In this document: positions 13,973 to 35,401 of the stretch, piece after piece
Layout: each line of letters starts with the position of its first letter
How positions within the stretch are numbered: the stretch's first letter is position 1
From: a virus
Taxonomy: Duplodnaviria; Caudoviricetes
Length of the DNA: 64,000 bases
Reading direction: 5' to 3' (one strand)
IMG/VR virus record: IMGVR_UViG_3300035703_002708
Made by a program: the position numbers and the translations under genes
Notes under the pieces: generated by a model
Told to the model about the DNA's origin: nothing
What the model saw: the letters and a program-made list of their open reading frames with translations, nothing else
The model's database searches: none

Positions 13973-14740
13973 ATGACTATGTCCAAGAAAAAACATATAA
14001 ATGATTCCAACTTGTTGTTGGAAGCGAGATATCTTTTGGAGCAACCGGATTCCAAGATGCCAGGCCAAATAGAGAAATTTGGGTACAAACAAAATGATGC
14101 ATCTACTTTAGGACCTGCATTACAAAGACAAAAAGAATATTTGGAATCAATGGATACTCATACGTTACTAACGATAGGTAGCGTGGCAACCGCATTTATT
14201 CCAGTCGTCGGTCCATTAATAAGTGCGGGATTATCTCTTGCGGATGCTTCTATATATTTATCGGAAGGTGATAAAAAATCTGCAGGTTTATCTGCAATTT
14301 TTGCGGTTCTTCCTGGTTTAACGGGTGTTGTTGCTAAAATCCCTTTAATAAAAAATTTAGGTAGCAATGGTATGAAATTATTAGCCGACAAGATAATAAA
14401 AAATGGTGCCAAGGCTAAACTTACAAAACAGGAGTTGGGGGTTGTTAATAGTATTTCTCAAAATCAGAGTTTGATAACACAGGAACTTAACAATTATTCT
14501 AAAAATGTTGCATCGAAATATCTCAATAACACTAAAAACGCAAAATTGAAGTCTACTCTGTCAAGCATCGCTAAAGGTGGTTTGAAATTTAGTGGACAGG
14601 TTGCCGGTTACGGTTCTGTGGCTTATATTTACGATAAACTATATCAAGACGAACCTTCGAGTACAGATTTGGTTAAAAATTTGAGCACAGTAAAACCAAC
14701 AGCGGCTAGTTATCAGGCGGCAAAATCAATACAGTGGTAA
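13973..14740 (+). CDS. Hypothetical protein with Gly/Ala-rich amphipathic segments
   Basis: 255-aa ORF tightly coupled to its neighbours. Confidence 0.75.
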   Translation: MTMSKKKHINDSNLLLEARYLLEQPDSKMPGQIEKFGYKQNDASTLGPALQRQKEYLESMDTHTLLTIGSVATAFIPVVGPLISAGLSLADASIYLSEGDKKSAGLSAIFAVLPGLTGVVAKIPLIKNLGSNGMKLLADKIIKNGAKAKLTKQELGVVNSISQNQSLITQELNNYSKNVASKYLNNTKNAKLKSTLSSIAKGGLKFSGQVAGYGSVAYIYDKLYQDEPSSTDLVKNLSTVKPTAASYQAAKSIQW

Positions 14741-15000: not shown

Positions 15001-15018
15001 TTAACGGATATTTATAAT

Positions 15019-17019
15019 GTGATGGAAAACAATGGTATTTTAAAAAGTTTTGATTTACAGGATGATTTGAATCCAAAAATTTGGAAAAAAAACTCAAAAG
15101 GGTCCTATACATTATCACCAGAAGTTAGAGAAAAACTTTTGGAAATTGCATACGAATTTATTGAATCATTAAAAGTAGATGTAATAGTATCAGATGTTCA
15201 TCTTACTGGTTCACTCGTCAACTTTAATTGGTCTCAGTATTCGGATTTTGATTTACATATCATAGCTGATTTTAATCAGTTTCCAAAAAAAAGTTTACCT
15301 CTTTACGAAGAGTTATTTAAACTTAAAAAAACCATATTTAATTCTGAACAGAATATTAAAATATACGGATACGATGTCGAGGTCTTTGTTCAGGATGAAA
15401 ATGAAAAAGGTCATTCTGCAGGTATCTTTTCTTTAATTTCGAATGATTGGTTAGAAAAACCAAAAAAAGAAAAATTTGAGGTAAATAAAACGATTCTTAA
15501 AAAGAAAATAGACCAATGGACTGAAAAAATAGATAAGGTCCTTGAGTCGGCACAAGAGGAGAAAGATTTAGAAAAATCTAAAAAATTAGTTAGTAACCTT
15601 AAAGAAAAACTCAAGGATTATAGAAAAATTGGACTAGAAAAAGGAGGAGAGATGTCTTACGAAAACCTTGTATTCAAATACTTGAGAAGAAGTGGACATA
15701 TAGAAAAATTGTTCGACTTCAAAAAAGACAGATTGAATAAGGAACTTTCATTGAATGAGGTTACTACAACTATTGGTGGTACTTTTAAGACTGACCTTGA
15801 GAATGGTCCTAAAAATCATGGAGCAAGAGCGTTCGGTAATTGGCAATCTGATAATGCTTGGGATATTTTTTCACCTCCTGGTACTAATGTAAATTCTTAC
15901 ACTAATGGAACTGTTTCAAGAGTTTACGATACTGGTAAAAATTCAGGAAAGGTTTATGGTACTCAAGTAACAGTATCAGGTGAAAAGGGTTTTCCTGATA
16001 TTTTTTACACTCATTTAAAAAATGTCAATTTGAAAAAAGGAGACAAAGTCAAAGTTGGTGATTATATTGGTCAAATTTCTGAATGGATTGGACATAAAGG
16101 AATGGAACATGTTCATATTGGTCTACCTCGAGGTAACCATTTAAGAAGTTTATTAGTTAACACTGAGAAAATTTTTTCAGGAAAAGGACCTATAAATCAA
16201 CCAGGTTCTAATACAGAAACTGATAGTGGTTATATTGGTTCCTTATTGACACAAGCAGATAAGTCCAAGTTTCTAAAAGATTTTATGGAGTTGGCGAAAA
16301 ATGATGTCAATTACAAATATGACTTAAGTAATAAAGGAAGGATACAATATCAACCAGAAGTTGAGAAAATTCAGGTTGCGCTGAAGTTTTTAGGATATGA
16401 CTTACCAAAGTGGGGTATCGATGGGAAGTTCGGACCCGAAACTGAATCCGCGGTAAAAGAATTACAAAAAAAATATAATTTGGGTGAAACAGGTGTAGTT
16501 ACTAAAATAGTTTTACAATATCTTTTCGTTCTTATAATCCAAAATGGATTTGAGCAAGCCGACCTAAGTAAAATACTGTCCCTAAAAGACGAAGGTTTTA
16601 CTAGTCCAAGCGTGTCTAACGATAAAGAATTTTACGAACAAATTTTGAAAGGTATCAATGCACCAATTACGGACGGTAATCTTAAGTTCCTTTATGCATG
16701 GAGACAAGCAGAAGGTGGTAAGGCAACTAACAATCCTTTTAACACCACTTTAAATTTAAAAAAAGACAATCTAAAGTCTAACTATAACAGTGTTGGTGTA
16801 AAAAACTTTTCAAACTCATCGTATGGTGTTGAAGCAACAGTAAAAACATTATTGAATGGGTATTATGATTGTATTGTTGATGGTTTGCGAAACGATATAG
16901 GTGCGGAAAGAATTAGTAAAATGTGTATGAGTCAATTGGAAAAGTGGGGTACTGGAGGATTAGTTTATAAAGTATTACAAGGTGGGACTATAAAACCACC
17001 CCCTATTTATGAAGCATAA
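15019..17019 (+). CDS. Fusion: Pol-beta-type nucleotidyltransferase + M23 peptidase + peptidoglycan-binding domain + lysozyme-like domain
   Basis: LTGSL...SDFDLH...DVEV (NTase); AWDIF...YTHL...HVH (M23); IQVAL..LGY...GIDGKFGPET..AVKELQ (PG-binding); AWRQAEGG..TNNPFNTT (lysozyme-like). Confidence 0.75.
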   Translation: MMENNGILKSFDLQDDLNPKIWKKNSKGSYTLSPEVREKLLEIAYEFIESLKVDVIVSDVHLTGSLVNFNWSQYSDFDLHIIADFNQFPKKSLPLYEELFKLKKTIFNSEQNIKIYGYDVEVFVQDENEKGHSAGIFSLISNDWLEKPKKEKFEVNKTILKKKIDQWTEKIDKVLESAQEEKDLEKSKKLVSNLKEKLKDYRKIGLEKGGEMSYENLVFKYLRRSGHIEKLFDFKKDRLNKELSLNEVTTTIGGTFKTDLENGPKNHGARAFGNWQSDNAWDIFSPPGTNVNSYTNGTVSRVYDTGKNSGKVYGTQVTVSGEKGFPDIFYTHLKNVNLKKGDKVKVGDYIGQISEWIGHKGMEHVHIGLPRGNHLRSLLVNTEKIFSGKGPINQPGSNTETDSGYIGSLLTQADKSKFLKDFMELAKNDVNYKYDLSNKGRIQYQPEVEKIQVALKFLGYDLPKWGIDGKFGPETESAVKELQKKYNLGETGVVTKIVLQYLFVLIIQNGFEQADLSKILSLKDEGFTSPSVSNDKEFYEQILKGINAPITDGNLKFLYAWRQAEGGKATNNPFNTTLNLKKDNLKSNYNSVGVKNFSNSSYGVEATVKTLLNGYYDCIVDGLRNDIGAERISKMCMSQLEKWGTGGLVYKVLQGGTIKPPPIYEA

Positions 17020-18436
17020 TATTATGAAATCAGATTTATTAATTTTAAAAGAGGTAAAATTAAATTCTCCTTTAGATGGGGAATTGAACGTTACTAGCCC
17101 ATTCGGAAAATGGAGAGGTACTTATCAGCATCATGGTGTCGATATAGGAACACCATCCGGTAGTCAACTAAAAAGTCCTGCTGATGGTATTATAACGGTC
17201 GCTCACACTAAACAAAATGCTTGTGGGGGTACAATTACTATTGACCACAAAAATGGATTCAAAAGTCGTTTTTGTCATTTGAAAAGGATTGATGTTACTG
17301 TTGGTGACAAAGTTACCGCAGGACAGACAATTGCATTAACAGGTGGTGGTGCAAATGACCCAGGAAAAGGAAGGTCAACAGGTCCGCATTTACATTTCGA
17401 ATTCTATGAAAATGGGAGATTGGTAGACCCTATGAATTTTATTGATAAAGTAATATCACCTGGCGATTTCAAAGATTCCGAAAAACAAAGTGATATTTCT
17501 AATGAATTAATAACTAAAGCACAAAAATCTGATTTTTTAAAGAAGTTAAAAGATTTGGCCGAAAAGAATATCACATTTAAAAATTTAAAAAGTGAGGGTT
17601 CCAAAATACCATATAGAAAGGAGGTAGAAAATATTCAAATTGCACTACAATTTTTGAAACATTCTTTACCTGTATGGGGTGTTGATGGTTTATTTGGTCC
17701 TGAAACTGCAAACGCTGTTAAAGGATTTCAAAAAAAAATGAACCTTAAAGACACAGGTGAGGTTGACTCTGAAACTATGAAATATTTATACGCCTCTTTG
17801 GTTAAAAATAATTTTGAGGATTCTGATTTGAGTAAAATTAATTTTACAGGAGGATATAATTCGAACTTGTTGGATGTATCACCAAATTCGGTTTCATCTG
17901 ATTTTGAAACTATGACTAAAATAATAATAGATAATTTTGAGGGTGGTTATTATAATCCTGCATGGCATTATAAACCCGCAATGGGTCGTTCTGGTGAAAC
18001 AATGTTTGGAATGGATAGAGTGCACGGTGCAGGGTTGTTTAAATCGGGACCAGGTAAAATGTTTTGGGAAATTATTGATAAGAACAAATCAAAAGAAGTT
18101 TGGAAACATTATTATACGGGTGGACCAATAAAAGATGATTTGATTAAGTTAGTCGCAATGATTATGGAGGAGGCTTATAATGTAAATTCTAACACGTATT
18201 TATCACCTACTGCTCGTAAAATAGTAAACTCAAATAATGGTTTGATGTTTCATTTTTTATACGCATGTTGGAACGGTCCAGGTTTTTTCAAAAGATTTGC
18301 TAACATAATAAATAAGGCGGTTGAGGACGGTATCGAATCTCCACAAAAACTTCTGAGTATTGCAATAAATTCAAGATTGGATGGAGGAGTAACAAGAAAA
18401 AGCGGAGAAAAAATGTTGAAAATATTCAAAGCATAA
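17009..18436 (+). CDS. M23 peptidase + peptidoglycan-binding domain + GH108-like muramidase
   Basis: HHGVD, FCHL and TGPHLHFE (M23); GVDGLFGPET (PG-binding); FEGGYYNP...GETMFG (GH108-like). Confidence 0.8.
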   Translation: MKHNIMKSDLLILKEVKLNSPLDGELNVTSPFGKWRGTYQHHGVDIGTPSGSQLKSPADGIITVAHTKQNACGGTITIDHKNGFKSRFCHLKRIDVTVGDKVTAGQTIALTGGGANDPGKGRSTGPHLHFEFYENGRLVDPMNFIDKVISPGDFKDSEKQSDISNELITKAQKSDFLKKLKDLAEKNITFKNLKSEGSKIPYRKEVENIQIALQFLKHSLPVWGVDGLFGPETANAVKGFQKKMNLKDTGEVDSETMKYLYASLVKNNFEDSDLSKINFTGGYNSNLLDVSPNSVSSDFETMTKIIIDNFEGGYYNPAWHYKPAMGRSGETMFGMDRVHGAGLFKSGPGKMFWEIIDKNKSKEVWKHYYTGGPIKDDLIKLVAMIMEEAYNVNSNTYLSPTARKIVNSNNGLMFHFLYACWNGPGFFKRFANIINKAVEDGIESPQKLLSIAINSRLDGGVTRKSGEKMLKIFKA

Positions 18437-18520: not shown

Positions 18521-19918
18521 ATGGGAAAACTTAAGCCTATAGGAAGTGAAAAATTGCAGGGTATGGAAAAAATACAACGTATCTTAGAAATTGCTAAATA
18601 CAAAGAATCACCATCATCGAATGTCAATGAAAATACTTCTGACAATTATAATATTGTTCTATCAGACGGTAATACTTACCATATAAATAAAGAAAAAAAT
18701 GGTTACGTAATAACACGTACATTGTCTGAGGGTACAACAGATTACATAGAACCTATGAAAAATAGGAGATATTATTCTTCATATTCACAGGCCTTCAAAA
18801 GATTGAATTTGATTGCTAAGGAGATAAATGTTATGACAGGTAATGAAGGTGGAATTTCTTTGTTTTCAGAACAGAAAAAATTTGTACTGAAAACTCCAAA
18901 TACTCCAGAGCCGGCGGCGGAACCGGTGGCACCTGCTCCTGCTCCTGCACCATCACCTGAACCAACAGGTGTAGAACCAAGTTTGGATGCCCCTGATATG
19001 GAAGAACCAAGTATGGATGCTCCTGATATGGAAGAACCAAATATGGATGCCCCTGATATGGAAGAACCAAGTATGGATGCTCCTGATATGGATTCATCAG
19101 ATGATGAAGATATGGTTTCGTTTAAAACTATTCAGAAACTAACTGGTAAATTAGGTCAAAAACTAAGAAAACTTAATCAAAGTGAAGAACCAATATCTGC
19201 TGATGATACGAAATATGTTATTAATTCAATACTTTCGGCTTTAGATTTATCTGTTTTGTCAGATGAGGACATGGAGGAAATAATCGGTAGATTAGAAGAT
19301 TCTGAATTCGAATCAGATGAAGAACCTGAAATGGAAGAACCTACTGATGAAATGGAACCTGAAATGGAAGAACCTACTGATGAAATGGAACCTGAAATAC
19401 CTGAAGGTGAGATGTTTGAATCTGAAAATGAAGAACAATGGGAGGGAACAATGGCAGGTGAATATGATTTAGGTTTCAGTGATAAACCCAAAAAATCAGA
19501 ACCCAAAGAGATGAATTTTAACAACTATGTAAAAAATAGATTTTCATCTGCAATTAATGATAAAATGGGTGAAATGACCGAGGATGAAAAAGTAGGGTTA
19601 GATAGTATTCTTGGTTCGGTATTTTCGGAATCTAAGGTAGATGATATTATAAAATCATACTTCGTAGAAACAGAATCTGAGAAAAAATTTATTTCAGAGC
19701 AAAAACAAAAAAGATTTTTGAATGAAAAGGTTAAAAAAATGAAAATAATGAAAGAAGTAAAAAACTTGTCAGAATCATTCGTACAAGAATCAACTTCATC
19801 AAAGTTTTTAGACAGATTTAAAAGAGCAAAATTCATCGGGAAAACTAATAAACATAATTTAGTTTTCGAGGTGGATGGTAAACAGTATAAAATTACCCCA
19901 CACGGAGCAATTCTATGA
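18521..19918 (+). CDS. Acidic repeat-containing late protein (head core/scaffold-like)
   Basis: TATTTATA at 18468; Glu/Asp/Met/Pro-rich central repeats. Confidence 0.7.
   Translation: MGKLKPIGSEKLQGMEKIQRILEIAKYKESPSSNVNENTSDNYNIVLSDGNTYHINKEKNGYVITRTLSEGTTDYIEPMKNRRYYSSYSQAFKRLNLIAKEINVMTGNEGGISLFSEQKKFVLKTPNTPEPAAEPVAPAPAPAPSPEPTGVEPSLDAPDMEEPSMDAPDMEEPNMDAPDMEEPSMDAPDMDSSDDEDMVSFKTIQKLTGKLGQKLRKLNQSEEPISADDTKYVINSILSALDLSVLSDEDMEEIIGRLEDSEFESDEEPEMEEPTDEMEPEMEEPTDEMEPEIPEGEMFESENEEQWEGTMAGEYDLGFSDKPKKSEPKEMNFNNYVKNRFSSAINDKMGEMTEDEKVGLDSILGSVFSESKVDDIIKSYFVETESEKKFISEQKQKRFLNEKVKKMKIMKEVKNLSESFVQESTSSKFLDRFKRAKFIGKTNKHNLVFEVDGKQYKITPHGAIL
18971..19090 (+). repeat. Four tandem 30-nt coding repeats ((V/E)EP(S/N)(L/M)DAPDM)
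   Basis: Units start at 18971, 19001, 19031 and 19061, with no spacers. Confidence 0.95.
19322..19398 (+). repeat. 33-nt coding tandem repeat (EPEMEEPTDEM) x2 plus partial
   Basis: GAACCTGAAATGGAAGAACCTACTGATGAAATG at 19322 and 19355. Confidence 0.9.
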
Positions 19919-20328: not shown

Positions 20329-21058
20329 ACTGGCATTTAAATTAATTGACATGGGACTCAAAGCAGAAACATTAGCCAACTTAACTGAATCTCAATTAAG
20401 ATTATTATATAATAAACTAAACGAGGGTAAAAAAGAAACTAAGGAGGCAACAACTACTTACAAACCTGATGAAAAAATACCGGCGGACAAAGTTGACCCA
20501 AAAAACGTTACAAAAAACTCTGACGGTTCGGTTTCTGTAGAAGAAACTAATGAGGCAAAGAAAAAAGGTGGTAAAAAGAAATATAACCCTTGGGCTATTT
20601 GTACATCATCTGTTGGCCGTAAGGATAAGAAAAAATATGAAAGATGTGTGATGGATGTTAAAAAATCTATCAAAGAAGGAAAAGACCCTGTGAATTTGTT
20701 TTTGGAAGAAAAGATTGTATCTTTGCTAGAGAAGCACGTACAACCAAAAATTTCTAAAAAAGATTTTCTACAAATGATTTCGGAAACTGAAACCGCACCT
20801 GCGAAACCAAAGGTACCTGTGGTTGAGCCAGGGAAAAAACCAAAAACTCCGTTTAGTCCAAAACCTGGCGTTAAGACGGCACCCAAGGCCGAAACCAAAG
20901 AACAGGACACGGCAGAACCAATTGTAAAACCTAAAACACCAAAAACAAAACCTAAAACACCATTTAGTCCAAAACCAGGTGTTAAACCGGCACCTAAAGC
21001 TGGAAAAAAATCAGTACCTACTTGGTTAAAGTGGGATAATCTCGGTCTTAATTTTTAA
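20315..21058 (+). CDS. Lys/Pro-rich hypothetical protein
   Basis: Duplicated PKTPFSPKPGVKxAPKA; likely start at ATG 20315. Confidence 0.75.
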   Translation: MKKNKLAFKLIDMGLKAETLANLTESQLRLLYNKLNEGKKETKEATTTYKPDEKIPADKVDPKNVTKNSDGSVSVEETNEAKKKGGKKKYNPWAICTSSVGRKDKKKYERCVMDVKKSIKEGKDPVNLFLEEKIVSLLEKHVQPKISKKDFLQMISETETAPAKPKVPVVEPGKKPKTPFSPKPGVKTAPKAETKEQDTAEPIVKPKTPKTKPKTPFSPKPGVKPAPKAGKKSVPTWLKWDNLGLNF

Positions 21059-21067
21059 TACGAAGTC

Positions 21068-22300
21068 ATGGCAAAATATAAAAGAATTAATGAAGCACCA
21101 ATTGATTATGAAGGTCCTGAAAGAATGGACCCAAGTATCGAAAGAAAAATTACAACTAAAACTACACCATACGCCGAACATCCAGGATTACCAAAGTTAG
21201 ATAGAGATGTTGTTGAGATTATTTCTTCCCAAAGATTCAAACAATCTGTAGAAAATGTGAGAAGATTTATGGGTGATACATCATCCATTCAAGGACCACC
21301 TCAACAAGTTCTGATGAAATTGATGCAATCCGCTATGAGATTATTTCCTAAAATTGCAAGTATCGAACAAAATCACAAAGAATTTTTAGAGAAACTGGCA
21401 GTTGATTTGGTTGTGAAAGAAATGGCAATTCCCGAAGGAGCACTTCAGTTTGATGCTGAATTAGTATCAGGTATGATGGGTTCTGCGGAAGGAATGAGAG
21501 GACAATCTGAAGAACCTTCACCCGAAGAAGTTAAAGATGCTTTTGGAAGTGCTAATGAAAATGCAGACGAACTTGAGGCTTTTATGGATGCGATGGAAAA
21601 ATTCGACCAACAAAAAGCAAAAAGAAGATTTATCAACGCACTTATTGGTGGAGCGTCAAAAAAGGGACACTATATGTATCAACTTGTTGGTGAGGAACTA
21701 AATAGATTACATCCCGAACTTGTTCGTTTATATGGTATGTCTCAATCTATCTTGGACCACTTATATTGGATTTATCCTGAAGATATGTCATCCGCTATGG
21801 CGGCTGCAGGTTCAGGTCAAGCAGGTCAATCAGAAATTGATACAGAAACTGACCCCCCTACAGTAAAGGCCCGTGGTGTTACTTTCCCTATTTTATTACA
21901 CGAATTAGTTAAAGGTGTTTTTGAAGTATTAGGAACTCACGGATTACCTGATGACCCTCGTCAAGCAGAAATGGTAATTGCGTCTCAAGATACACTTCCA
22001 GCAGAAATTTGGGATTTAAGATTAGGTCCTATTTTTTGGGAGAAATTTACGGCAGCATATCCCGACGAACTATTCGAAGAGGATAAAAAATACATCCAAC
22101 ATTACTTATTTCAAAGATTTTCGGCACTTGACCCAAAGAAATTTTTCAAACTAACTAAATTTATTTTGTCAGGTGACCCCAAAGGTAATCAAGTTCTTCA
22201 AATTATGGTTGATGAAATCGTAGAAGAACTAAAACAACAAGATAGAGAATCTATGTTTGGAAGTAATGATGACGACGAGGATGATGAACCTATGGTTTAA
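21068..22300 (+). CDS. Hypothetical protein directly upstream of terminase
   Basis: 410-aa ORF with no recognisable motif. Confidence 0.8.
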   Translation: MAKYKRINEAPIDYEGPERMDPSIERKITTKTTPYAEHPGLPKLDRDVVEIISSQRFKQSVENVRRFMGDTSSIQGPPQQVLMKLMQSAMRLFPKIASIEQNHKEFLEKLAVDLVVKEMAIPEGALQFDAELVSGMMGSAEGMRGQSEEPSPEEVKDAFGSANENADELEAFMDAMEKFDQQKAKRRFINALIGGASKKGHYMYQLVGEELNRLHPELVRLYGMSQSILDHLYWIYPEDMSSAMAAAGSGQAGQSEIDTETDPPTVKARGVTFPILLHELVKGVFEVLGTHGLPDDPRQAEMVIASQDTLPAEIWDLRLGPIFWEKFTAAYPDELFEEDKKYIQHYLFQRFSALDPKKFFKLTKFILSGDPKGNQVLQIMVDEIVEELKQQDRESMFGSNDDDEDDEPMV

Positions 22301-22303
22301 TCT

Positions 22304-24079
22304 ATGGCTTATACTAAAGAACAAGTATTAATAGAATATGTGAAGTGCGTAAAGGATACCCCTTACGCACTTCGCACATATTTACAGACCTATGATAATA
22401 CTGTGTCAAAATATGTTCCTTTAGAATTATTTCCTGACCAAGTTTCTTTGTTAGACGATTACGAAAACTATAACGAAAATATTGCATTAAAATATCGTCA
22501 GGCAGGAGTTTCTACCGTAACCGCTGCTTGGGCATCCAAAAGATTAGTATTTGCTAAAAAAACAAAACCAGAAAAAATTCTGATTATTGCCAACAAACTT
22601 GACACCGCTCAAGAAATGGCAAACAAAGTTCGTGGATTTGTAGAACAATGGCCTTCTTGGGTTGATGTTGGATTTACGAAAGAAAAAAATTCACAAAGAC
22701 ATTATAAATTAACAAATGGTTGTGAGGTAAAAGCGGTTGCAACATCAAAGGATGCTTTACGTGGTTATACACCGACTATATTGATATTCGATGAGGCGGC
22801 ATATATCGAAGCCGATGCAGACTTTTGGTCCGCATGTATGGCGTCCCTATCTACGGGTGGTAAAGTAATTGTGATTTCAACACCAAACGGTCACGACCCA
22901 ATTTATTATGAGATTTATGACCAAGCCGACAGAGGTATGAATGATTTCAAGGTCTCTGAAATGTATTGGTATAAAGACCCAAGATATACAAAGGATTTAT
23001 ATTTAGTTCAAACCGAAGATATAATCGATTATTTTTTAAATAAAGAAAATTACAAATCAGACCAAATAATTCATATGGAGGATTACAATGTTAATAATCC
23101 TGAACAATATGAAAAACTGAAACATTATATGTCAACAGGATACAAACCTAGTTCTTCTTGGTTTGAGTCTATGGTAAAAAAACTAAAGTATGACAAACGA
23201 AAAGTTTCTCAGGAATTGGAATGTAACTTCTTGGGTTCGGGTGATAACGTATTTGACTCAAAAATATTACAAAAAATAAGGGAAAATTTCATAAAGGACC
23301 CTGCAAACAGAATGATATCAAATTCATTATGGATTTGGAAAGAACCTGTTATGGGACATAAATACGTAATGGGTGTCGATGTATCAAGAGGAGATTCAGA
23401 GGATTACTCCACATTTCAGATAATTGATTTTGATACAAGAGAACAAGTCGCTGAATTTGTGGGTAAACTACCACCTGACACAATGGCAGAAATTTGTTTT
23501 AAGTGGGCTAATATGTATTCAGCATTCGTTGTAATTGATATCACCGGTGGTATGGGTGTGTCTACATCAAGAAAAATGCAAGAATTGGGATATAAGAACC
23601 TGTATGTTGATGGTGTAGATTACCAAAACAAATGGAAATACGACCCAAAACAAGCAGAAAAAATTCCTGGTATAAACTTCAACTCAAAAAGGGTTCAGAT
23701 AATAGCGTCTTTCGAAGAAGCTATTAGACACGATTTTGACATTAAAAGTTCAAGATTGTTAAACGAAATGAATAGTTTTGTTTATATAAACGGAAGACCT
23801 GACCATCAAAAAGGTGGACACGATGACTTAATTATGTCGATTGCAATGGCAATATATGTCGCGGAAGCCTCCTTTAGTCAACTCACCAAAGTTACAGAAC
23901 AAACAAAAGCAATGATAAATTCTTGGACCATACAAGAAGATGATACACCATCAAAATCAATCGCGTTTAACCCACAAATACCAAACTTTTCATCAAGATA
24001 TCAAGACCCCAATTTAAATTCAGGACCATCAAGGGAGGACTATATGAAATATAATTGGTTATTTGGGGGAATGAGATAA
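22304..24079 (+). CDS. terL: Terminase large subunit (T4 gp17-like)
   Basis: Walker A-like LKYRQAGVST, Walker B IFDEAAY, ISTPNG, nuclease MGVDVSRG and HDDLIM. Confidence 0.93.
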   Translation: MAYTKEQVLIEYVKCVKDTPYALRTYLQTYDNTVSKYVPLELFPDQVSLLDDYENYNENIALKYRQAGVSTVTAAWASKRLVFAKKTKPEKILIIANKLDTAQEMANKVRGFVEQWPSWVDVGFTKEKNSQRHYKLTNGCEVKAVATSKDALRGYTPTILIFDEAAYIEADADFWSACMASLSTGGKVIVISTPNGHDPIYYEIYDQADRGMNDFKVSEMYWYKDPRYTKDLYLVQTEDIIDYFLNKENYKSDQIIHMEDYNVNNPEQYEKLKHYMSTGYKPSSSWFESMVKKLKYDKRKVSQELECNFLGSGDNVFDSKILQKIRENFIKDPANRMISNSLWIWKEPVMGHKYVMGVDVSRGDSEDYSTFQIIDFDTREQVAEFVGKLPPDTMAEICFKWANMYSAFVVIDITGGMGVSTSRKMQELGYKNLYVDGVDYQNKWKYDPKQAEKIPGINFNSKRVQIIASFEEAIRHDFDIKSSRLLNEMNSFVYINGRPDHQKGGHDDLIMSIAMAIYVAEASFSQLTKVTEQTKAMINSWTIQEDDTPSKSIAFNPQIPNFSSRYQDPNLNSGPSREDYMKYNWLFGGMR

Positions 24080-24140: not shown

Positions 24141-25958
24141 ATGGAAAATAATCAAAATCTTACAGTTTGGCAAAGGCTGACCAAAACATTTGGACCCTAT
24201 TCATTGTTAGGTCAGGACTACCCAACTTATCAATATGACAAAACGGAGTTGTTGAAAACGACCTCCAAACAACAATACGAAAAAGAAAAATTACAGGCTC
24301 AACAAACTTATTATTTAGCCAATCAGTGGACCAAAATTGAGAATAATTTATACACTCAAGCCACTTATTACGAACCAACAAGGTTAGCCTCGTTTTACGA
24401 CTTTGAATCGATGGAATATACTCCTGAGATTTCGGCGGCACTTGACATCTATGGTGAGGAATCAACAACAGTAAACCAAGATGGTCAAATGGTTCAAATT
24501 TATTCTGATTCACAAAGAATAAAATCTATTTTGACTGATTTATTTAATAACTCACTTGATATCAATACAAATCTACCGATGTGGACAAGAAATACTTGTA
24601 AATACGGTGATAATTTTGTGTATTTGAAATTGGACCCTGAAAAGGGTGTTGTTGGTTGTATGCAATTACCAAACATCGAAATTGAGAGATTGGAGATGGG
24701 TATGGCGTCCAAAACATATAATACTGAAGCCGACCCAAGAAATACTGGTTTGAGATTCAAGTGGAAAGCTCGTGATATGGAGTTTAACTCTTGGGAGATT
24801 GCTCATTTCAGATTATTGGGTGACGACAGAAAACTTCCATACGGAACATCGATGTTGGAAAAGGCAAGACGTATTTGGAAACAATTAATTTTGGCGGAAG
24901 ATGCGATGTTAATTTATCGTACATCAAGAGCCCCTGAAAGAAGGATTTTCAAAGTGTTTGTCGGTAATATGGATGACCAAGATGTGGAGGCATATGTAAA
25001 TCGTGTGGCAAACAAGTTTAAACGTCAACAGGTAGTAGACCATAAAACAGGAAATGTTGATATGAGATTTAATCAAATGGCGGTAGACCAAGATTATTTT
25101 GTACCTGTTCGTGACCCAGCACAGGCAAGTCCTATTGATACCTTACCTGGCGCTCAAAACCTAGCAGAAATTGCTGATATTGAGTATATCCAAAAGAAAT
25201 TATTGACTGCACTTCGTGTTCCAAAAGCATTTTTAGGTTTTGAGGAGCCTGTGGGTGATGGAAAAAATTTATCACTAATGGATATTCGTTTTGCGAGAAC
25301 AATCAATAGAATACAAAAAAGTATGTTGGCAGAAATGAATAAAATTGCCATCATACATTTGTTCTTATTGGGTTTCGAAGATGAATTAAGTAATTTTACA
25401 TTAGGATTGAATAACCCATCTCGTCAAGCAGACCTTTTGGCGGTTGACGTATGGAAAGAAAAGATATTACTTTATAAGGATGCTGTTACCGCAATTGAGG
25501 GAATCGCACCTGTATCAGTTTCTTGGGCTAAGAAACACGTACTTGGATTCTCTGATGAAGAAATCAAACTTGACTTACAACAACAAAGAATTGAGAAGGC
25601 GGTTGGTGCAGAATTAACAAATACTGCGACGATTATTGTTCATACAGGTATATTTGATAATGTCGATAAATTGTATGGTTCACAAACTGGAACTACCGCC
25701 GCAGCAGGTGCCACGCCCCCACCCCCTCCTGAAGGTGGAATGGAGGAAATGGGAGGAGGAGCACCTCCACCACCACCGCCAGGTCCTGAACCAGGTGGAG
25801 AAGCGGGAGTAACACCAGAGTCAAAAAAAAGAGATAATATGAATATATTACTCGAAAGTAATGATTTGATAAATGAAGATGACTTTATAGATTTATCTAA
25901 AGTTAGAAATTCTTTGGGTGATATTGGAAACGAACTTGATAGAATATTAAATGACTAA
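24141..25958 (+). CDS. Portal protein (T4 gp20-like)
   Basis: PEISAALDIY, CKYGDNF, EDAMLIYRTSRAPERRIF, DYFVP, IDTLPGAQNL and ALRVPKAFL. Confidence 0.93.
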   Translation: MENNQNLTVWQRLTKTFGPYSLLGQDYPTYQYDKTELLKTTSKQQYEKEKLQAQQTYYLANQWTKIENNLYTQATYYEPTRLASFYDFESMEYTPEISAALDIYGEESTTVNQDGQMVQIYSDSQRIKSILTDLFNNSLDINTNLPMWTRNTCKYGDNFVYLKLDPEKGVVGCMQLPNIEIERLEMGMASKTYNTEADPRNTGLRFKWKARDMEFNSWEIAHFRLLGDDRKLPYGTSMLEKARRIWKQLILAEDAMLIYRTSRAPERRIFKVFVGNMDDQDVEAYVNRVANKFKRQQVVDHKTGNVDMRFNQMAVDQDYFVPVRDPAQASPIDTLPGAQNLAEIADIEYIQKKLLTALRVPKAFLGFEEPVGDGKNLSLMDIRFARTINRIQKSMLAEMNKIAIIHLFLLGFEDELSNFTLGLNNPSRQADLLAVDVWKEKILLYKDAVTAIEGIAPVSVSWAKKHVLGFSDEEIKLDLQQQRIEKAVGAELTNTATIIVHTGIFDNVDKLYGSQTGTTAAAGATPPPPPEGGMEEMGGGAPPPPPPGPEPGGEAGVTPESKKRDNMNILLESNDLINEDDFIDLSKVRNSLGDIGNELDRILND

Positions 25959-27266: not shown

Positions 27267-27995
27267 ATGAACGAACTTAAAATATTGAAACCCTATGAAT
27301 CAGGGAAAGGAATTCTTATTGAGTATGATGCGGGATATGTGTCACCAAAAGAGTTCGGAAATCAAAATATTTTGATGGAATCCAAAAGTTTTATGGACCA
27401 CAGTAAACCTTTTGAGTTTTATGCGGTTCTACAAAAATATAACACACCAAATCGTAATGGTAGGATTTACCCTGAGAAAATATTAAAAAGAGAAGCAGAA
27501 AATTATAAGAAAATGATTAATAAGGGTGTTTCACTTTCTGAGTTGAACCACCCTGAATCATCTCTCATAGATTTAGATAGAGTTTCTCACATAATAACAG
27601 ATATATGGTGGGATGGAATAATACTAATGGGTAAATTAAGATTATTAACTTCGCCAGGTTTTCACGAAAGAGGTATTTGCTCAACAAAAGGAGATTTAGC
27701 AGCAAATTATTTAAGACAAGGAGTAACTTTAGGTATCTCTTCAAGGGGTGTTGGTTCATTAAAGAAAATAGGTGAACAAAATGAAGTTCAGGATGATTTT
27801 GAATTAATTTGTTTTGACTTGGTATCTTCACCCTCTACTCCTGGTGCGTACCTATTTTCTAACCCTGAGGATAGAGGTAATTTTGAGGAGAATTTGGAAG
27901 AAGAAAAACAAACTCAGAGAGAACGTCACGTAGGACCTGAAGCGAATAATTCTTTAGACCTAATGAAAAGATTAAACACTTATCTCAATAAGTAA
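27267..27995 (+). CDS. Prohead core protease (T4 gp21-like)
   Basis: NRNGRIYP, SELNHPES, GISSRGVGSL and FDLVSSPSTPGAY. Confidence 0.92.
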   Translation: MNELKILKPYESGKGILIEYDAGYVSPKEFGNQNILMESKSFMDHSKPFEFYAVLQKYNTPNRNGRIYPEKILKREAENYKKMINKGVSLSELNHPESSLIDLDRVSHIITDIWWDGIILMGKLRLLTSPGFHERGICSTKGDLAANYLRQGVTLGISSRGVGSLKKIGEQNEVQDDFELICFDLVSSPSTPGAYLFSNPEDRGNFEENLEEEKQTQRERHVGPEANNSLDLMKRLNTYLNK

Positions 27996-29980: not shown

Positions 29981-31849
29981 ATGGGAGCATTATTAGAATC
30001 AGGTCTTGTTGGTAACATCGGTCTTAAGCACCTTAAAGTTATCAAAGAAGATACAATTAACAAATGGGACAAATTAGGGTTCCTAGAAGGTCTTAAAGGC
30101 CACCTAAAAGAAAACGTTGCACAACTTTATGAAAACCAAGCATCGTTCTTAATTAACGAAGCAACATCTGACTCATCTTCAGGTTCATTCGAAACTGTTG
30201 TATTTCCAATCGTTAGACGTGTGTTTTCTAAATTGTTGGCGAACGAAATCGTATCAGTACAAGCAATGAACTTACCAATCGGTAAATTGTTCTACTTCGT
30301 ACCTAAAATCCAAGGATACTCAGGGGCAACTGCAGATGCAACAATCCCTGGAGGATATTCAGATTCAGGTGACCACTACGCACCTGTAGGTTCACCGGGT
30401 AATTATCCAGGAAACACCGCAGCTGGATATTCTACTGGTACACCTTATACTAAAAACCTTTATGATTTGTTCTACGAAGGTACTGAACCAGGTTTGAATC
30501 CTGCCGGTCTATTCGATTACTCTAAAGGTAGATTTACAGTTGTTACTGCAGATACTCAAACAGTTGTTTGGTCAAACGGTGCCTTAACACCTCAAGCATA
30601 CACTGCAGGAGAATATAGAAAAATTTTAGTACAACTTTCAGGATTTTCTACTGCAGGTGTTGGTAAACTAATCGGACCTGACGGTCAAGAAGTGGATAGT
30701 GAAACTTTTCTATCTAATTTGATTCTTTATACGGCAAATTCAACTGTGGCCGATGAACTCACTGACAGTACTGCAAATGTTTATACTCCACTATTATTCC
30801 GTGTTGTTACACAAAAATATGGTCAAGGTATCGTAGGACCAACTTATACATCAACTCAAGCACCTTTCAATAGAACTACAACTGGCGGTAATGGTGGTTA
30901 CTATGATAACATCTGTAACCAAGCAGGTATCATCTATTTGGAAATCGATGCACAGGTTCCTGTTTGTGTTTCATGTGGTCAATCAACACCTGATGGTTAT
31001 TCAGGAGCGACAATTACAACTGCAGCATGGTCTGGTACAGGTGCAAACGCACCAATCAGAGCGGCTTGGAGACGTTACGAAGAACTAGAATTCGAAGATA
31101 AAATTGGTGAGGTTTCTTTCGACCTTCAGTCTGTGACTGTATCGGTAACTGAAAGAAAACTAAGAGCACAATGGTCTCCTGAACTTGCTCAAGACGTTGC
31201 AGCGTTCCATAACATCGATGCTGAGGCTGAATTGACAGCGTTGTTGTCAGAACAAGTCGCGGCTGAAATTGACCGTGAAATTTTACGTGACTTACGTAAA
31301 GGGGCGGCTTGGAACCTACGTTGGGATTACAACGGATGGAAGCGTCTGTCTTCATCAGGAACTACTCCGTACACTCAAAAAGATTGGAATCAAACTTTGA
31401 TTACAGCAATTAACCAAATTTCTGCACAAATCCACAAGTCAACTCTTCGCGGTGGTGCTAACTGGATTGTTGTATCATCTGAGGTTTCGGCAATTTTTGA
31501 TGATTTGGAATATTTCCACGTATCAAATGCTTCACCTGAGCAAGACCAATACAATATGGGTATTGAAAGAGTGGGTACATTAGCTGGTCGTTACCAAGTA
31601 TATCGTGACCCATACTTCCCTGCGAACCAAGTATTGATTGGCCACAAAGGTACTTCGTTACTTGATACAGGTTACATTTACGCTCCTTACGTACCTCTAC
31701 AGTTGACTCCAACTATGTACAATCCATTCAACTTTACACCTATCAAAGGTATCATGACACGTTACGCTAAGAAAATGGTTAACAACCGTTTCTACGGACG
31801 TATCACAGTTGACGGTGTACGTACCTTCGATTTGAATGAATTGAGATAA
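29981..31849 (+). CDS. Major capsid protein (T4 gp23-like)
   Basis: PIVRRVF, VSVQAMNLPIG, RKLRAQWSPELAQD..A.HNIDAEAEL, EIDREI, YIYAPYVPL and IMTRY. Confidence 0.95.
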   Translation: MGALLESGLVGNIGLKHLKVIKEDTINKWDKLGFLEGLKGHLKENVAQLYENQASFLINEATSDSSSGSFETVVFPIVRRVFSKLLANEIVSVQAMNLPIGKLFYFVPKIQGYSGATADATIPGGYSDSGDHYAPVGSPGNYPGNTAAGYSTGTPYTKNLYDLFYEGTEPGLNPAGLFDYSKGRFTVVTADTQTVVWSNGALTPQAYTAGEYRKILVQLSGFSTAGVGKLIGPDGQEVDSETFLSNLILYTANSTVADELTDSTANVYTPLLFRVVTQKYGQGIVGPTYTSTQAPFNRTTTGGNGGYYDNICNQAGIIYLEIDAQVPVCVSCGQSTPDGYSGATITTAAWSGTGANAPIRAAWRRYEELEFEDKIGEVSFDLQSVTVSVTERKLRAQWSPELAQDVAAFHNIDAEAELTALLSEQVAAEIDREILRDLRKGAAWNLRWDYNGWKRLSSSGTTPYTQKDWNQTLITAINQISAQIHKSTLRGGANWIVVSSEVSAIFDDLEYFHVSNASPEQDQYNMGIERVGTLAGRYQVYRDPYFPANQVLIGHKGTSLLDTGYIYAPYVPLQLTPTMYNPFNFTPIKGIMTRYAKKMVNNRFYGRITVDGVRTFDLNELR

Positions 31850-34234: not shown

Positions 34235-35401
34235 ATGAAAAATCAAATTACAGACACTGAGAGAAATACAATTTTAGAAATGCACATATCCAAAGGTTAT
34301 AAAACTTTAAATGTGGATGAAATTGTTAAGACATCTTTAATGGAACAATATACAGAATCTAATATAACCGCAGTACAGAATGCTCTGATAAAGGCCGGTG
34401 AAAATGTCGGACCTACAGGTGCTGACGGTGATTATGGTACAAATACAAAAAACGCAGTTAAAAGTTTCCAAAGAAAAAACGGATTAGAGGATGATGGCGT
34501 CGTAGGTCCCTGTACTGCTAAAGCATTAGGGGTAAAATCCTTACAAGGTGGTAATGTTTGCACCGATAGTAGTGTTAAACAAAAAGTTGTACCTGACTCT
34601 AGTAAAAATAAAACCAAAATAACACCTGATTCTTCTAAGTTGAAAACTGGTCAGGGTTTGACTGATAGAAAAAAATATGATTGTATTGCGATAACCAAAG
34701 ACCAATGTAGTAGTTTGACAAAACGAGGTGGAAATATTGGAACAGGAGGTAAAGACGAGGGTTGTGCTAAATATATGAGAGTTTGTTTACAACAATTGGA
34801 CGGTAAACTTGTTGGTGGTGATGCATGGAAGCTACTTCCAATACTTAAAGGACAGGGAGGAACAGAACTTTATAATATGTTCACTCAAGATATAGATTTT
34901 AATAAATTATCCAATCAATTTAAAGGTAAAAACGTAACAAACCTTTGTGCTATACATACAAAGGGTGGTGAAGGTCATGACAAAGAGGATTCTACATTTA
35001 AAACAATTGTTAAAAACAATTATCCGAATAAAACAAACATGTCAATAAGTAATTTGAAGTTGGGTGATATTGTAGGTTTATATTGGAGGGACTCAGGTAA
35101 CTTTGGAAAGGCTTTTTGTTCAAGAGGATTGAAAGATGGTAAGATAAAAAATGAACCATTTTCATTTAACACACACGTAGGTTTCGTAGGAGCGATAAAG
35201 GACGGAATGCCGCTTATTTTCCACAGTGTTCACTCGAAAAGATTAGCAACACCTGCAAGTGATTTGATGAATAAAAATCAACAGGGTATGATAACTTGGG
35301 TTGTTAGAGACCCTGAGATATATGCATCGGCTAATAGTAGTAAAAATAAACCTGAGGAAGAAAATTCTTGGTGGTCAGACCTTTTCAACAAACAAATTTA
35401 A
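34235..35401 (+). CDS. Peptidoglycan-binding domain + putative papain-like (CHAP/NlpC-type) amidase
   Basis: VQNAL..AG...GADGDYG..T..AVKSFQ...L..DGVVG; GCAKY...GDAW...LGDIVGL...THVGFV (Cys/His). Confidence 0.7.
   Translation: MKNQITDTERNTILEMHISKGYKTLNVDEIVKTSLMEQYTESNITAVQNALIKAGENVGPTGADGDYGTNTKNAVKSFQRKNGLEDDGVVGPCTAKALGVKSLQGGNVCTDSSVKQKVVPDSSKNKTKITPDSSKLKTGQGLTDRKKYDCIAITKDQCSSLTKRGGNIGTGGKDEGCAKYMRVCLQQLDGKLVGGDAWKLLPILKGQGGTELYNMFTQDIDFNKLSNQFKGKNVTNLCAIHTKGGEGHDKEDSTFKTIVKNNYPNKTNMSISNLKLGDIVGLYWRDSGNFGKAFCSRGLKDGKIKNEPFSFNTHVGFVGAIKDGMPLIFHSVHSKRLATPASDLMNKNQQGMITWVVRDPEIYASANSSKNKPEEENSWWSDLFNKQI

Follow-up and report, generated by a model that had tools for sequence, protein, structure and literature searches.

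Polyvalent proteins (Iyer et al. 2017) combine disparate activities in one polypeptide of a phage or mobile element, and the idea put forward for them is packaging followed by delivery along with the DNA at invasion (PMC5512222). They are the closest concept to the product of a gene in a 64,000 nt stretch of viral DNA (IMG/VR record IMGVR_UViG_3300035703_002708; Duplodnaviria, Caudoviricetes), referred to here as the window. The gene encodes a nucleotidyltransferase (NTase) domain of the DNA polymerase beta (Pol-beta) superfamily, followed in the same chain by an M23-like peptidase domain, a PG_binding_1 domain and a lysozyme-superfamily domain resembling glycoside hydrolase family 73 (GH73) (Table 1). 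Polyvalent proteins likewise unite an unrelated modifying enzyme with peptidoglycan-attacking domains (PMC5512222), and here sequence matches and structure models point to NTase, peptidase, glycosidase and binding domain in one polypeptide, in a phage with TerL and portal genes. There are also differences. In PMC5512222 the Pol-beta NTases are of the minimal type, occur in Firmicute conjugative elements and have ArdC-N as fusion partner, whereas the present NTase belongs to an apparently phage-specific family of roughly 245 aa that includes a helical domain. PMC5512222 makes no mention of M23 but an M23-like domain is present here, and the zincin-like processing peptidase domain of polyvalent proteins was not found in the present protein.

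Other described systems share parts of this arrangement. Phage phi29 gp13 (PDB 3csq/3csr) also has a lysozyme fold and an M23 (LytM) domain in one chain, but the domain order is reversed and there is neither PG_binding_1 nor an N-terminal NTase; gp13 is a tail protein, and for the present protein a place in the virion is presumed. T4 Alt and the T4 internal proteins offer the parallel of an enzyme possibly delivered with the DNA, and the present phage also has a gp21-type S77 protease, a T4-like portal and a capsid gene. However, Alt is an ADP-ribosyltransferase without a wall hydrolase, and T4 cargo has a short N-terminal targeting leader that is cut at L/I-x-E, which has no counterpart here. 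A literature search returned nothing specific to the fusion of an NTase to a wall hydrolase.

The reading favoured here, to which we give a little less than an even chance, is that the fusion is a late-made, virion-carried protein of the polyvalent type that breaches the wall and delivers the NTase. The protein would become part of the virion. At infection its wall modules would bind murein and open it locally, and the NTase part would be delivered to the cell, where it may attach a nucleoside monophosphate (NMP) to a macromolecule of the host or the phage; candidate targets are proteins and RNA 3' ends. This reading is based on the conservation of the fusion, of its genomic position and of a motif shared with head genes, and on the shuffling of cargo between relatives together with the detection of a stand-alone homologue in virions. 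It is also based on the invariance of the catalytic residues, on the finding of no signal peptide or transmembrane segment in the fusion protein, and on the overlap between partner domains in the wider family and the polyvalent-protein repertoire (PMC5512222).

Architecture and conservation of the fusion

A single unbroken open reading frame (ORF) covers positions 15019–17019 (+), as the first-pass annotation of this DNA had described, and gives 666 aa from a GTG at 15019 or 665 aa from an ATG at 15022. The ATG is most likely the true start because close homologues begin with MENNGILKSF; residues are numbered from it. The four-part architecture that had been read from the sequence (NTase, M23, peptidoglycan-binding and lysozyme-like domains) is borne out by Pfam, AlphaFold2 models and fold matches.

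Whether the fusion is real was judged by its conservation across independent assemblies. A length-restricted search gave hundreds of full-length homologues of about 646 aa, with 55–58% identity and 99% coverage, from JGI, ENA, NCBI and Logan assemblies and on contigs of up to 298 kb. Since hundreds of independently assembled proteins from these four sources have the same fused architecture, the explanation that an assembly error, a frameshift or a stop-codon artefact joined two genes is effectively refuted and has virtually no probability. A comparison of fused and split homologues, which the first-pass annotation had proposed, shows that the fusion is conserved and that stand-alone family members also exist.

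An exhaustive search with the N-terminal domain yielded 3,860 representative clusters (50% identity) at E ≤ 0.001, with 1,290 at E ≤ 1e-30, and the ESM Atlas clusters of the domain are 99–100% viral. The NTases of this family, phrog_36119, are apparently a large phage-specific family as judged by these searches. The domain stands alone in 20 of 144 representatives, and the other 124 have cargo at the C-terminus, the N-terminus or both. Among the nearest 50%-identity representative clusters C-terminal cargo is present in 35 of 36. Representatives with M23, PG_binding_1 or GH73-like modules fall, with one exception (27/28), in a single clade with a Shimodaira-Hasegawa-like approximate likelihood ratio (SH-aLRT) support of 99. 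The commonest cargo element is PG_binding_1 (24 representatives), nearly all of it inside this 33-member wall-cargo clade. Variants in the clade include NTase-PG_binding_1-GH73-like, which is without M23, NTase-M23-PG_binding_1-GH19, and NTase-M15-like-PG_binding_1-lysozyme2 (Phage_lysozyme2). These domain comparisons show a constant NTase whose wall-degrading cargo changes from one relative to the next. Partners in the wider family comprise GNAT, cytidylyltransferase-like, CCA-adding head, RNase_T, 2H, Acb1, ParB_N, Ank and lysozyme domains, and most partners are without an assignment; of 68 relatives, 2 have the cytidylyltransferase-like domain as the fusion partner of the NTase.

One relative, P0110 (1,141 aa; L009 10001–13426 and L010 621–4046), has an NTase domain 95% identical to the present one and a different cargo. 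PG_binding_1, M23, Phage_lysozyme2, VanY and a class-A beta-lactamase-like domain (PF13354) are found in its one chain. A beta-lactamase fold within a lysin-type phage protein is unusual.

The nucleotidyltransferase domain

The NTase domain comprises residues 1–243, with an alpha/beta core at about aa 13–146 and a helical bundle at aa 151–243. It matches phrog_36119, which has 247 positions and no annotated function, with an E value of 8e-43. The Pol-beta signature is complete: TGS at positions 62–64, DFD at 75–77 and VEVF with E120, all invariant in a 56-sequence family alignment. The GS, DxD and third acidic strand that had been recognized by eye thus correspond to the invariant G63-S64, D75-x-D77 and E120. 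N67, S74 and H79 are invariant as well, as are W143, P147, R201, G209, N215, K219 and R222. This family-wide invariance of catalytic and helical-domain residues is an argument for a working enzyme.

The AlphaFold2 model of the domain has a mean predicted local distance difference test score (pLDDT) of 92.9. It displays the alpha/beta core and the helical bundle up to residue 242, and then a lower-confidence linker, with mean pLDDT values of 69 and then 60 in the final two ten-residue blocks (aa 241–259). The core superimposes on the minimal NTase 2rff with Z 7.0 (root-mean-square deviation (rmsd) 3.8, 102 aligned residues), on 1ylq with Z 6.9 and on FAM46C with Z 6.8. A wide structural search of the N-terminal domain was swamped by generic helical bundles that match residues 151–249, and the informative matches are those to the core. 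Lack of an NTase fold in this domain had been named as an observation that would overturn the earlier interpretation; the fold is present in the AlphaFold2 model (core Z 6.8–7.0). The alignment and the model together establish an NTase fold with an intact active site in the N-terminal domain.

Pfam PF01909 on the query itself gives E 0.0057, which is below the cut-off. In 68 diverse relatives Pfam finds PF01909 in 35 (best E 1e-9), the MTPAP palm in 11 and Polbeta in 9. Foldseek matches of the model, all weak, are to CdnE, ANT(9), ANT(6), MNT, CCA-adding enzymes and the CyaA N-domain. Comparisons with single subfamilies are also weak: ANT_9 gives E 0.017, CdnE gives a Foldseek E of 9.5e-4 at a TM-score of 0.22, and the AMPylation domain of DrrA gives E 5e-4 as a single sequence in phmmer and E 0.0095 as a profile. 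With matches this weak (E about 1e-3, full-length TM-scores of 0.2–0.27, a core-only Z of about 7), the domain cannot be placed in a subfamily and consequently cannot be given a substrate. The characterised Pol-beta NTases ANT(9)/AadA, CdnE, MNT and DrrA share the NTase core and the GS/DxD/E signature with the present domain, and ANT(9) is also similar in size and in its layout of a core plus a helical domain, but the likeness is weak and at Z about 7 is for the core alone.

Wall-degrading modules

The M23 domain (residues about 250–385) is divergent. Membership in PF01551 is clear, with 41.1 bits against a gathering cut-off of 28.7 (E 2e-10), and to this extent the M23 assignment of the first-pass annotation stands. 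The canonical ligand set does not. DNAWD aligns to HHGVD of a paralogous lysin encoded next to the fusion gene, i.e., DxxxD is found in place of HxxxD and the first zinc ligand is an Asp. The catalytic His (in FYTHL) is retained, as is the HVH motif, and the SDNAWD variant is conserved among homologues. The PG_binding_1 domain (residues 444–499) matches PF01471 with 51.6 bits against a cut-off of 23 (E 1e-13), and it is, together with the linker, 46% identical to that of the paralogue.

The C-terminal domain (residues about 532–665) has no sequence match in Pfam (E ≤ 10), in NCBIfam (0.1) or in a PDB sequence search. Its AlphaFold2 model, with a pLDDT of 86.8, resembles a lysozyme fold of the GH73-like type. 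Matches to GH73 enzymes extend over 102–115 residues and include AtlA (7qfu, Z 7.1, rmsd 3.2, 113 aligned), TM0633 (4qdn, Z 7.0) and FlgJ (5dn5, Z 7.0). Peptidoglycan glycosidases make up nearly the whole set of 79 chains with Z ≥ 2, phi29 gp13 (Z 4.4–4.7) among them, and Foldseek finds Auto and FlgJ. A lysozyme-like domain had been proposed earlier, and at the level of the fold the proposal is confirmed (GH73 Z 7.0–7.1). Motifs of the domain are an invariant Glu564 (AWRQAEGG), NPFNTT and WGTG. Glu564 is at the end of helix 33–46 of the model; a catalytic Glu at a helix end is usual in the lysozyme superfamily. The GH73-like domain is undescribed.

Detection of a homologue in virions

A tblastn match at positions 126042–126719 of cyanophage S-CREM2 corresponds to gp156 (ORF156, 126012–126725). 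This protein is 34% identical to the NTase domain over 238 aa, keeps the catalytic motifs and ends in ...LSL. ORF156 was detected in the proteome of CsCl-purified S-CREM2 virions with 6 unique peptides and 15.2% coverage, and its neighbours ORF155 and the cytidylyltransferase ORF154 were detected as well (PMC10665884, Table 3). A search for a second virion proteome gave none.

Stand-alone phrog_36119 proteins are also found in S-CRM01 (g125), Cr30, the Maribacter phages Molly and Colly and the Lak megaphages, and together with S-CREM2 ORF156 they are 32–40% identical to the present domain over about 240 aa. They differ from the fusion in that they are about 240 aa, end at the LSL tail, are among early or accessory genes and are without a KTSC neighbour. 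The stand-alone NTase of the cyanophages is a few genes away from enzymes reported in virions: a Ser/Thr kinase, g130, in S-CRM01 (L002 414–2879), and likewise the cytidylyltransferase gp154 in S-CREM2 (L004 1067–1927).

Genomic position and a motif shared with head genes

The phage of the window is a large, AT-rich, distantly T4-like aquatic myovirus. In relatives with 57–95% identity in the NTase domain the gene order is fixed: a ClpB-like gene (-), Hsp20 or a small ORF, KTSC, NTase::cargo, an acidic protein (450–540 aa), three unnamed genes, TerL, portal, two small genes and the S77 protease. The fusion gene is at the head of this late head-gene block and near the S77 protease, a head-gene context that agrees with the earlier suggestion for this gene.

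An 8 nt motif, ATATTTAT, precedes the fusion gene and recurs along plus strand genes from 13231 to 34235. It is found 21–30 nt 5' of the portal, 241-aa, protease, 514-aa, 240-aa and 388-aa genes; a scaffold-like gene and other head-block genes are among them. It is also found at -13 of the NTase gene, at -24 of a 246-aa gene and at -53 of the acidic protein gene. The sharing of the motif with head-block genes is consistent with late co-expression. The first-pass annotation had called this a late-type promoter. A motif common to the head-module genes is indeed present, but it is not a demonstrated promoter, and as it ends 6 nt before the ATG of the fusion gene, a promoter role would imply a nearly leaderless transcript.

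The KTSC gene is always directly 5' of the NTase gene in the clade, and the KTSC proteins are 68–100% identical compared with 57–95% for the NTase. KTSC has been described as DNA-binding (PMC9503650, Aravind group). None of the stand-alone NTase homologues in Molly, S-CRM01 and Cr30 has a KTSC gene beside it, and the pairing is therefore clade-specific. A complex prediction for the NTase domain with KTSC had a score of 0.01, which is no verdict, and nothing is drawn from it. The window phage has two extra, non-conserved ORFs before KTSC, and the paralogous lysin gene after the fusion gene is a further addition to this order. One of the two ORFs encodes a protein with two hydrophobic segments, which from its sequence could be a holin-like or other membrane protein.

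Table 1. Positions of the fusion gene, its domains and other features in the window
Feature	Position	Strand	Basis or remarks
255-aa ORF with two hydrophobic segments (about aa 64–90 and 103–127)	13973–14740	+	Sequence
KTSC-domain gene, 80 aa	14758–15000	+	Pfam PF13619, E 3e-16; KTSC-then-NTase order in L005–L010
ATATTTAT motif, candidate late promoter element	15008–15015	+	Common to head-module genes
Whole fusion gene, NTase::M23-like::PG_binding_1::GH73-like	15022–17019	+	ORF call, homologue starts
Pol-beta-superfamily NTase domain (phrog_36119 family)	15022–15750	+	phrog_36119, alignment, AlphaFold2, fold matches
Junction LSLNE (aa 242–246), conserved NTase C-terminal tail, putative protease site	15745–15759	+	Alignments, site counts
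Divergent M23 peptidase domain	15769–16176	+	Pfam PF01551, motif alignment
PG_binding_1 domain	16351–16518	+	Pfam PF01471
Lysozyme-superfamily (GH73-like) domain	16615–17016	+	Alignment, AlphaFold2, fold matches
Paralogous lysin without NTase: canonical M23, PG_binding_1, other C-terminal domain	17009–18436	+	Pfam
TerL	22304–24079		Window gene call
T4-type portal	24141–25958		Window gene call
S77 (gp21-type) prohead protease	27267–27995		Window gene call; about 10 kb 3' of the fusion gene, same late block
gp23-type capsid protein	29981–31849		Window gene call

The domain junction

The L-N-E at residues 244–246 is directly after the last NTase helix and in the lower-confidence linker. T4 gp21-type proteases cut after L/I-x-E, and the first-pass annotation had taken this site as a sign of cleavage by the prohead protease. 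This interpretation is not upheld. The fusion protein has 7 L/I-x-E sites compared with 7.8 expected from composition, so that their occurrence is not above chance. In a set of 101 non-redundant fused relatives, 64 carry a junction [LIVMF]-x-E (background frequency of Glu, 8%), but the motif is not restricted to fused proteins. Twenty of 30 stand-alone or C-terminal NTase copies stop 0–2 residues past the hydrophobic position (e.g., ...LSLK), and all those that run further have a Glu at +1 or +2. As read from these alignments, LS[LI]xE is the domain's own natural C-terminal tail. One fused subclade has LS[ILV]E[QRN] at the junction, which is outside L/I-x-E. The L-x-E was therefore rejected as evidence of cleavage, since neither site counting nor the comparison of fused with terminal copies discriminates. 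Cleavage at LSLNE may take place, and the sequence data do not favour it over the null. A cut after LSLNE would yield an NTase that matches the stand-alone proteins almost to the residue.

In relative P0006 (864 aa) the junction motif is in tandem, LSLKE-KLSINE, between the NTase and M23. No T4-type N-terminal capsid-targeting leader was found in the present protein; from the N-terminus, L/I-x-E does not occur before residue 39, which is already part of the folded domain.

Alternative explanations

The protein could instead be an endolysin with a passenger enzyme, made late and held in the cytoplasm, where the NTase would act on, e.g., RNA or a host protein. The wall modules would gain access to the murein only once a holin had made the membrane permeable, and the protein would never be in the virion. 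We regard this as unlikely, though a serious contender. A candidate late motif and the lack of a signal peptide are as in a canonical endolysin, the shuffling of catalytic domains around PG_binding_1 is also typical of endolysins, and the possibly holin-like 255-aa protein is encoded two ORFs 5' of the fusion gene. In Cr30 the stand-alone NTase gene overlaps a gene annotated as "lytic enzyme". The 2-TM (two-transmembrane-segment) protein is, however, missing from relatives L007 and L009, which keep the fusion, and other PG_binding_1 candidates for the endolysin are available: the 34235–35401 protein in the window and a GDSL-PG_binding_1-SLT protein in L009. Relatives also have chains of about 1,100 aa with as many as four wall-active domains, an unusual number for endolysins in Gram-negative hosts; multiple lytic domains in one chain are a typical feature of virion-associated lysins. 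The virion detection of the S-CREM2 homologue is a further point against an endolysin. It had also been argued that one chain with both a cytoplasmic and a periplasmic activity is hard to explain except by a split or specially positioned protein. This is overstated. Folded endolysin of the canonical kind builds up in the cytoplasm before the holin acts, and because of this an NTase-endolysin chain needs no special explanation. The head polyprotein proposed in the first-pass annotation appears quite improbable. In that model the prohead would take up the whole chain, and the S77 protease would cleave it behind LSLNE to give a free NTase effector, along an Alt-like route, and a free three-part lysin. 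The protease gene in the same late block, the position of L-N-E in the linker right after the last helix, the frequency of [LIVMF]-x-E among fused relatives, the tandem motif of P0006 and the recreation of the stand-alone form by a cut all fit such processing. Against it are the domain-intrinsic nature of the motif, which stand-alone copies carry or end within, the off-consensus subclade, the chance frequency of L/I-x-E and the missing leader. In addition, contractile-tailed phages normally breach the wall with tail-tip enzymes and not with head contents. We consider it very unlikely that the NTase-like domain serves mainly as a structural adaptor, docking different cargos onto some component of the virion, with catalysis irrelevant. 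Its constancy in front of many unrelated cargos, and fusion on either side in 124 of 144 representatives, are what a docking module would display, but the stand-alone forms are common and the catalytic residues and R201, N215, K219 and R222 are invariant in 56 diverse sequences. A purely structural role is unlikely given this invariant active site.

Several observations count against the virion-carried protein favoured here. The virion detection concerns the cyanophage homologue. The S-CREM2 authors caution that virions may co-purify with abundant proteins that are not structural, and their data include two endolysins (PMC10665884). The stand-alone homologues in S-CRM01, Cr30 and Molly are among replication and accessory genes and not among structural genes. 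The junction L-x-E is neither statistically nor evolutionarily diagnostic of cleavage, and there is no capsid-targeting leader of the T4 type. One wall activity may be impaired, since the first metal ligand of M23 is non-canonical. A modular lysin with PG_binding_1 is also a known endolysin design in large phages.

Implications

Few enzymes are injected by tailed phages, among them the ADP-ribosyltransferase Alt, the N4 RNA polymerase and kinases. If the NTase is delivered with the genome, a nucleotidyltransferase would join them, and a function would also be provided for a very large phage-specific family that has none today. A broader proposal, speculative and more probably wrong than right, is that the phrog_36119 NTases are an unrecognised major class of virion-delivered NMP-transferases. 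In the clade of the present phage the enzyme would be coupled to the wall-breaching lysin and enter where and when the genome does. Before any phage gene is active it would modify its target by nucleotidylation, be it an RNA end or a component of host defence or translation, with KTSC as a conserved partner. A constant enzyme with swappable wall cargo represents a natural experiment in modular lysin design for Gram-negative (presumed Bacteroidota) hosts, and the GH73-like domain and the M23 variant with its Asp metal ligand are part of it. Even if the protein is an endolysin, the fusion behaviour of the NTase throughout the family merits biochemical attention.

Other features of the window

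The paralogous lysin matches Pfam M23 with E 4e-25 and PG_binding_1 with E 3.5e-13, and its first 11 nt are shared with the end of the fusion gene. Its 190-aa C-terminal domain, which has an EGGYYNP motif, gave no Pfam or PDB sequence match. In relative P0001 both lysin genes form one ORF of 950 aa.

A third PG_binding_1 protein is encoded at 34235–35401 (+), with ATATTTAT at -23. PG_binding_1, its sole recognisable domain, is N-terminal and followed by a 280-aa C-terminal part, a layout that resembles endolysins of the phiKZ gp144 type.

Compared with the capsid proteins of cultured phages and of the uncultured phage records listed, the gp23-type capsid protein has at most about 36–47% identity, and megablast of the region against cultured phages gave zero matches. 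No tail or baseplate genes were found in the window; a PHROGs search of its large minus-strand ORFs gave sugar-modifying genes.

Positions 18521–19918 (+) encode a highly acidic protein of 465 aa with tandem PAPAPAP and DAPDMEEP(S/N)M repeats. It has no family match, but its position between the lysin gene(s) and the terminase is conserved, and it may be a scaffold or internal head protein. In the head-gene block of relative L007 a gene for ribosomal protein S21 (PF01165) is found on the minus strand at 20952–21143, between a 238-aa gene that follows the portal and the protease gene.

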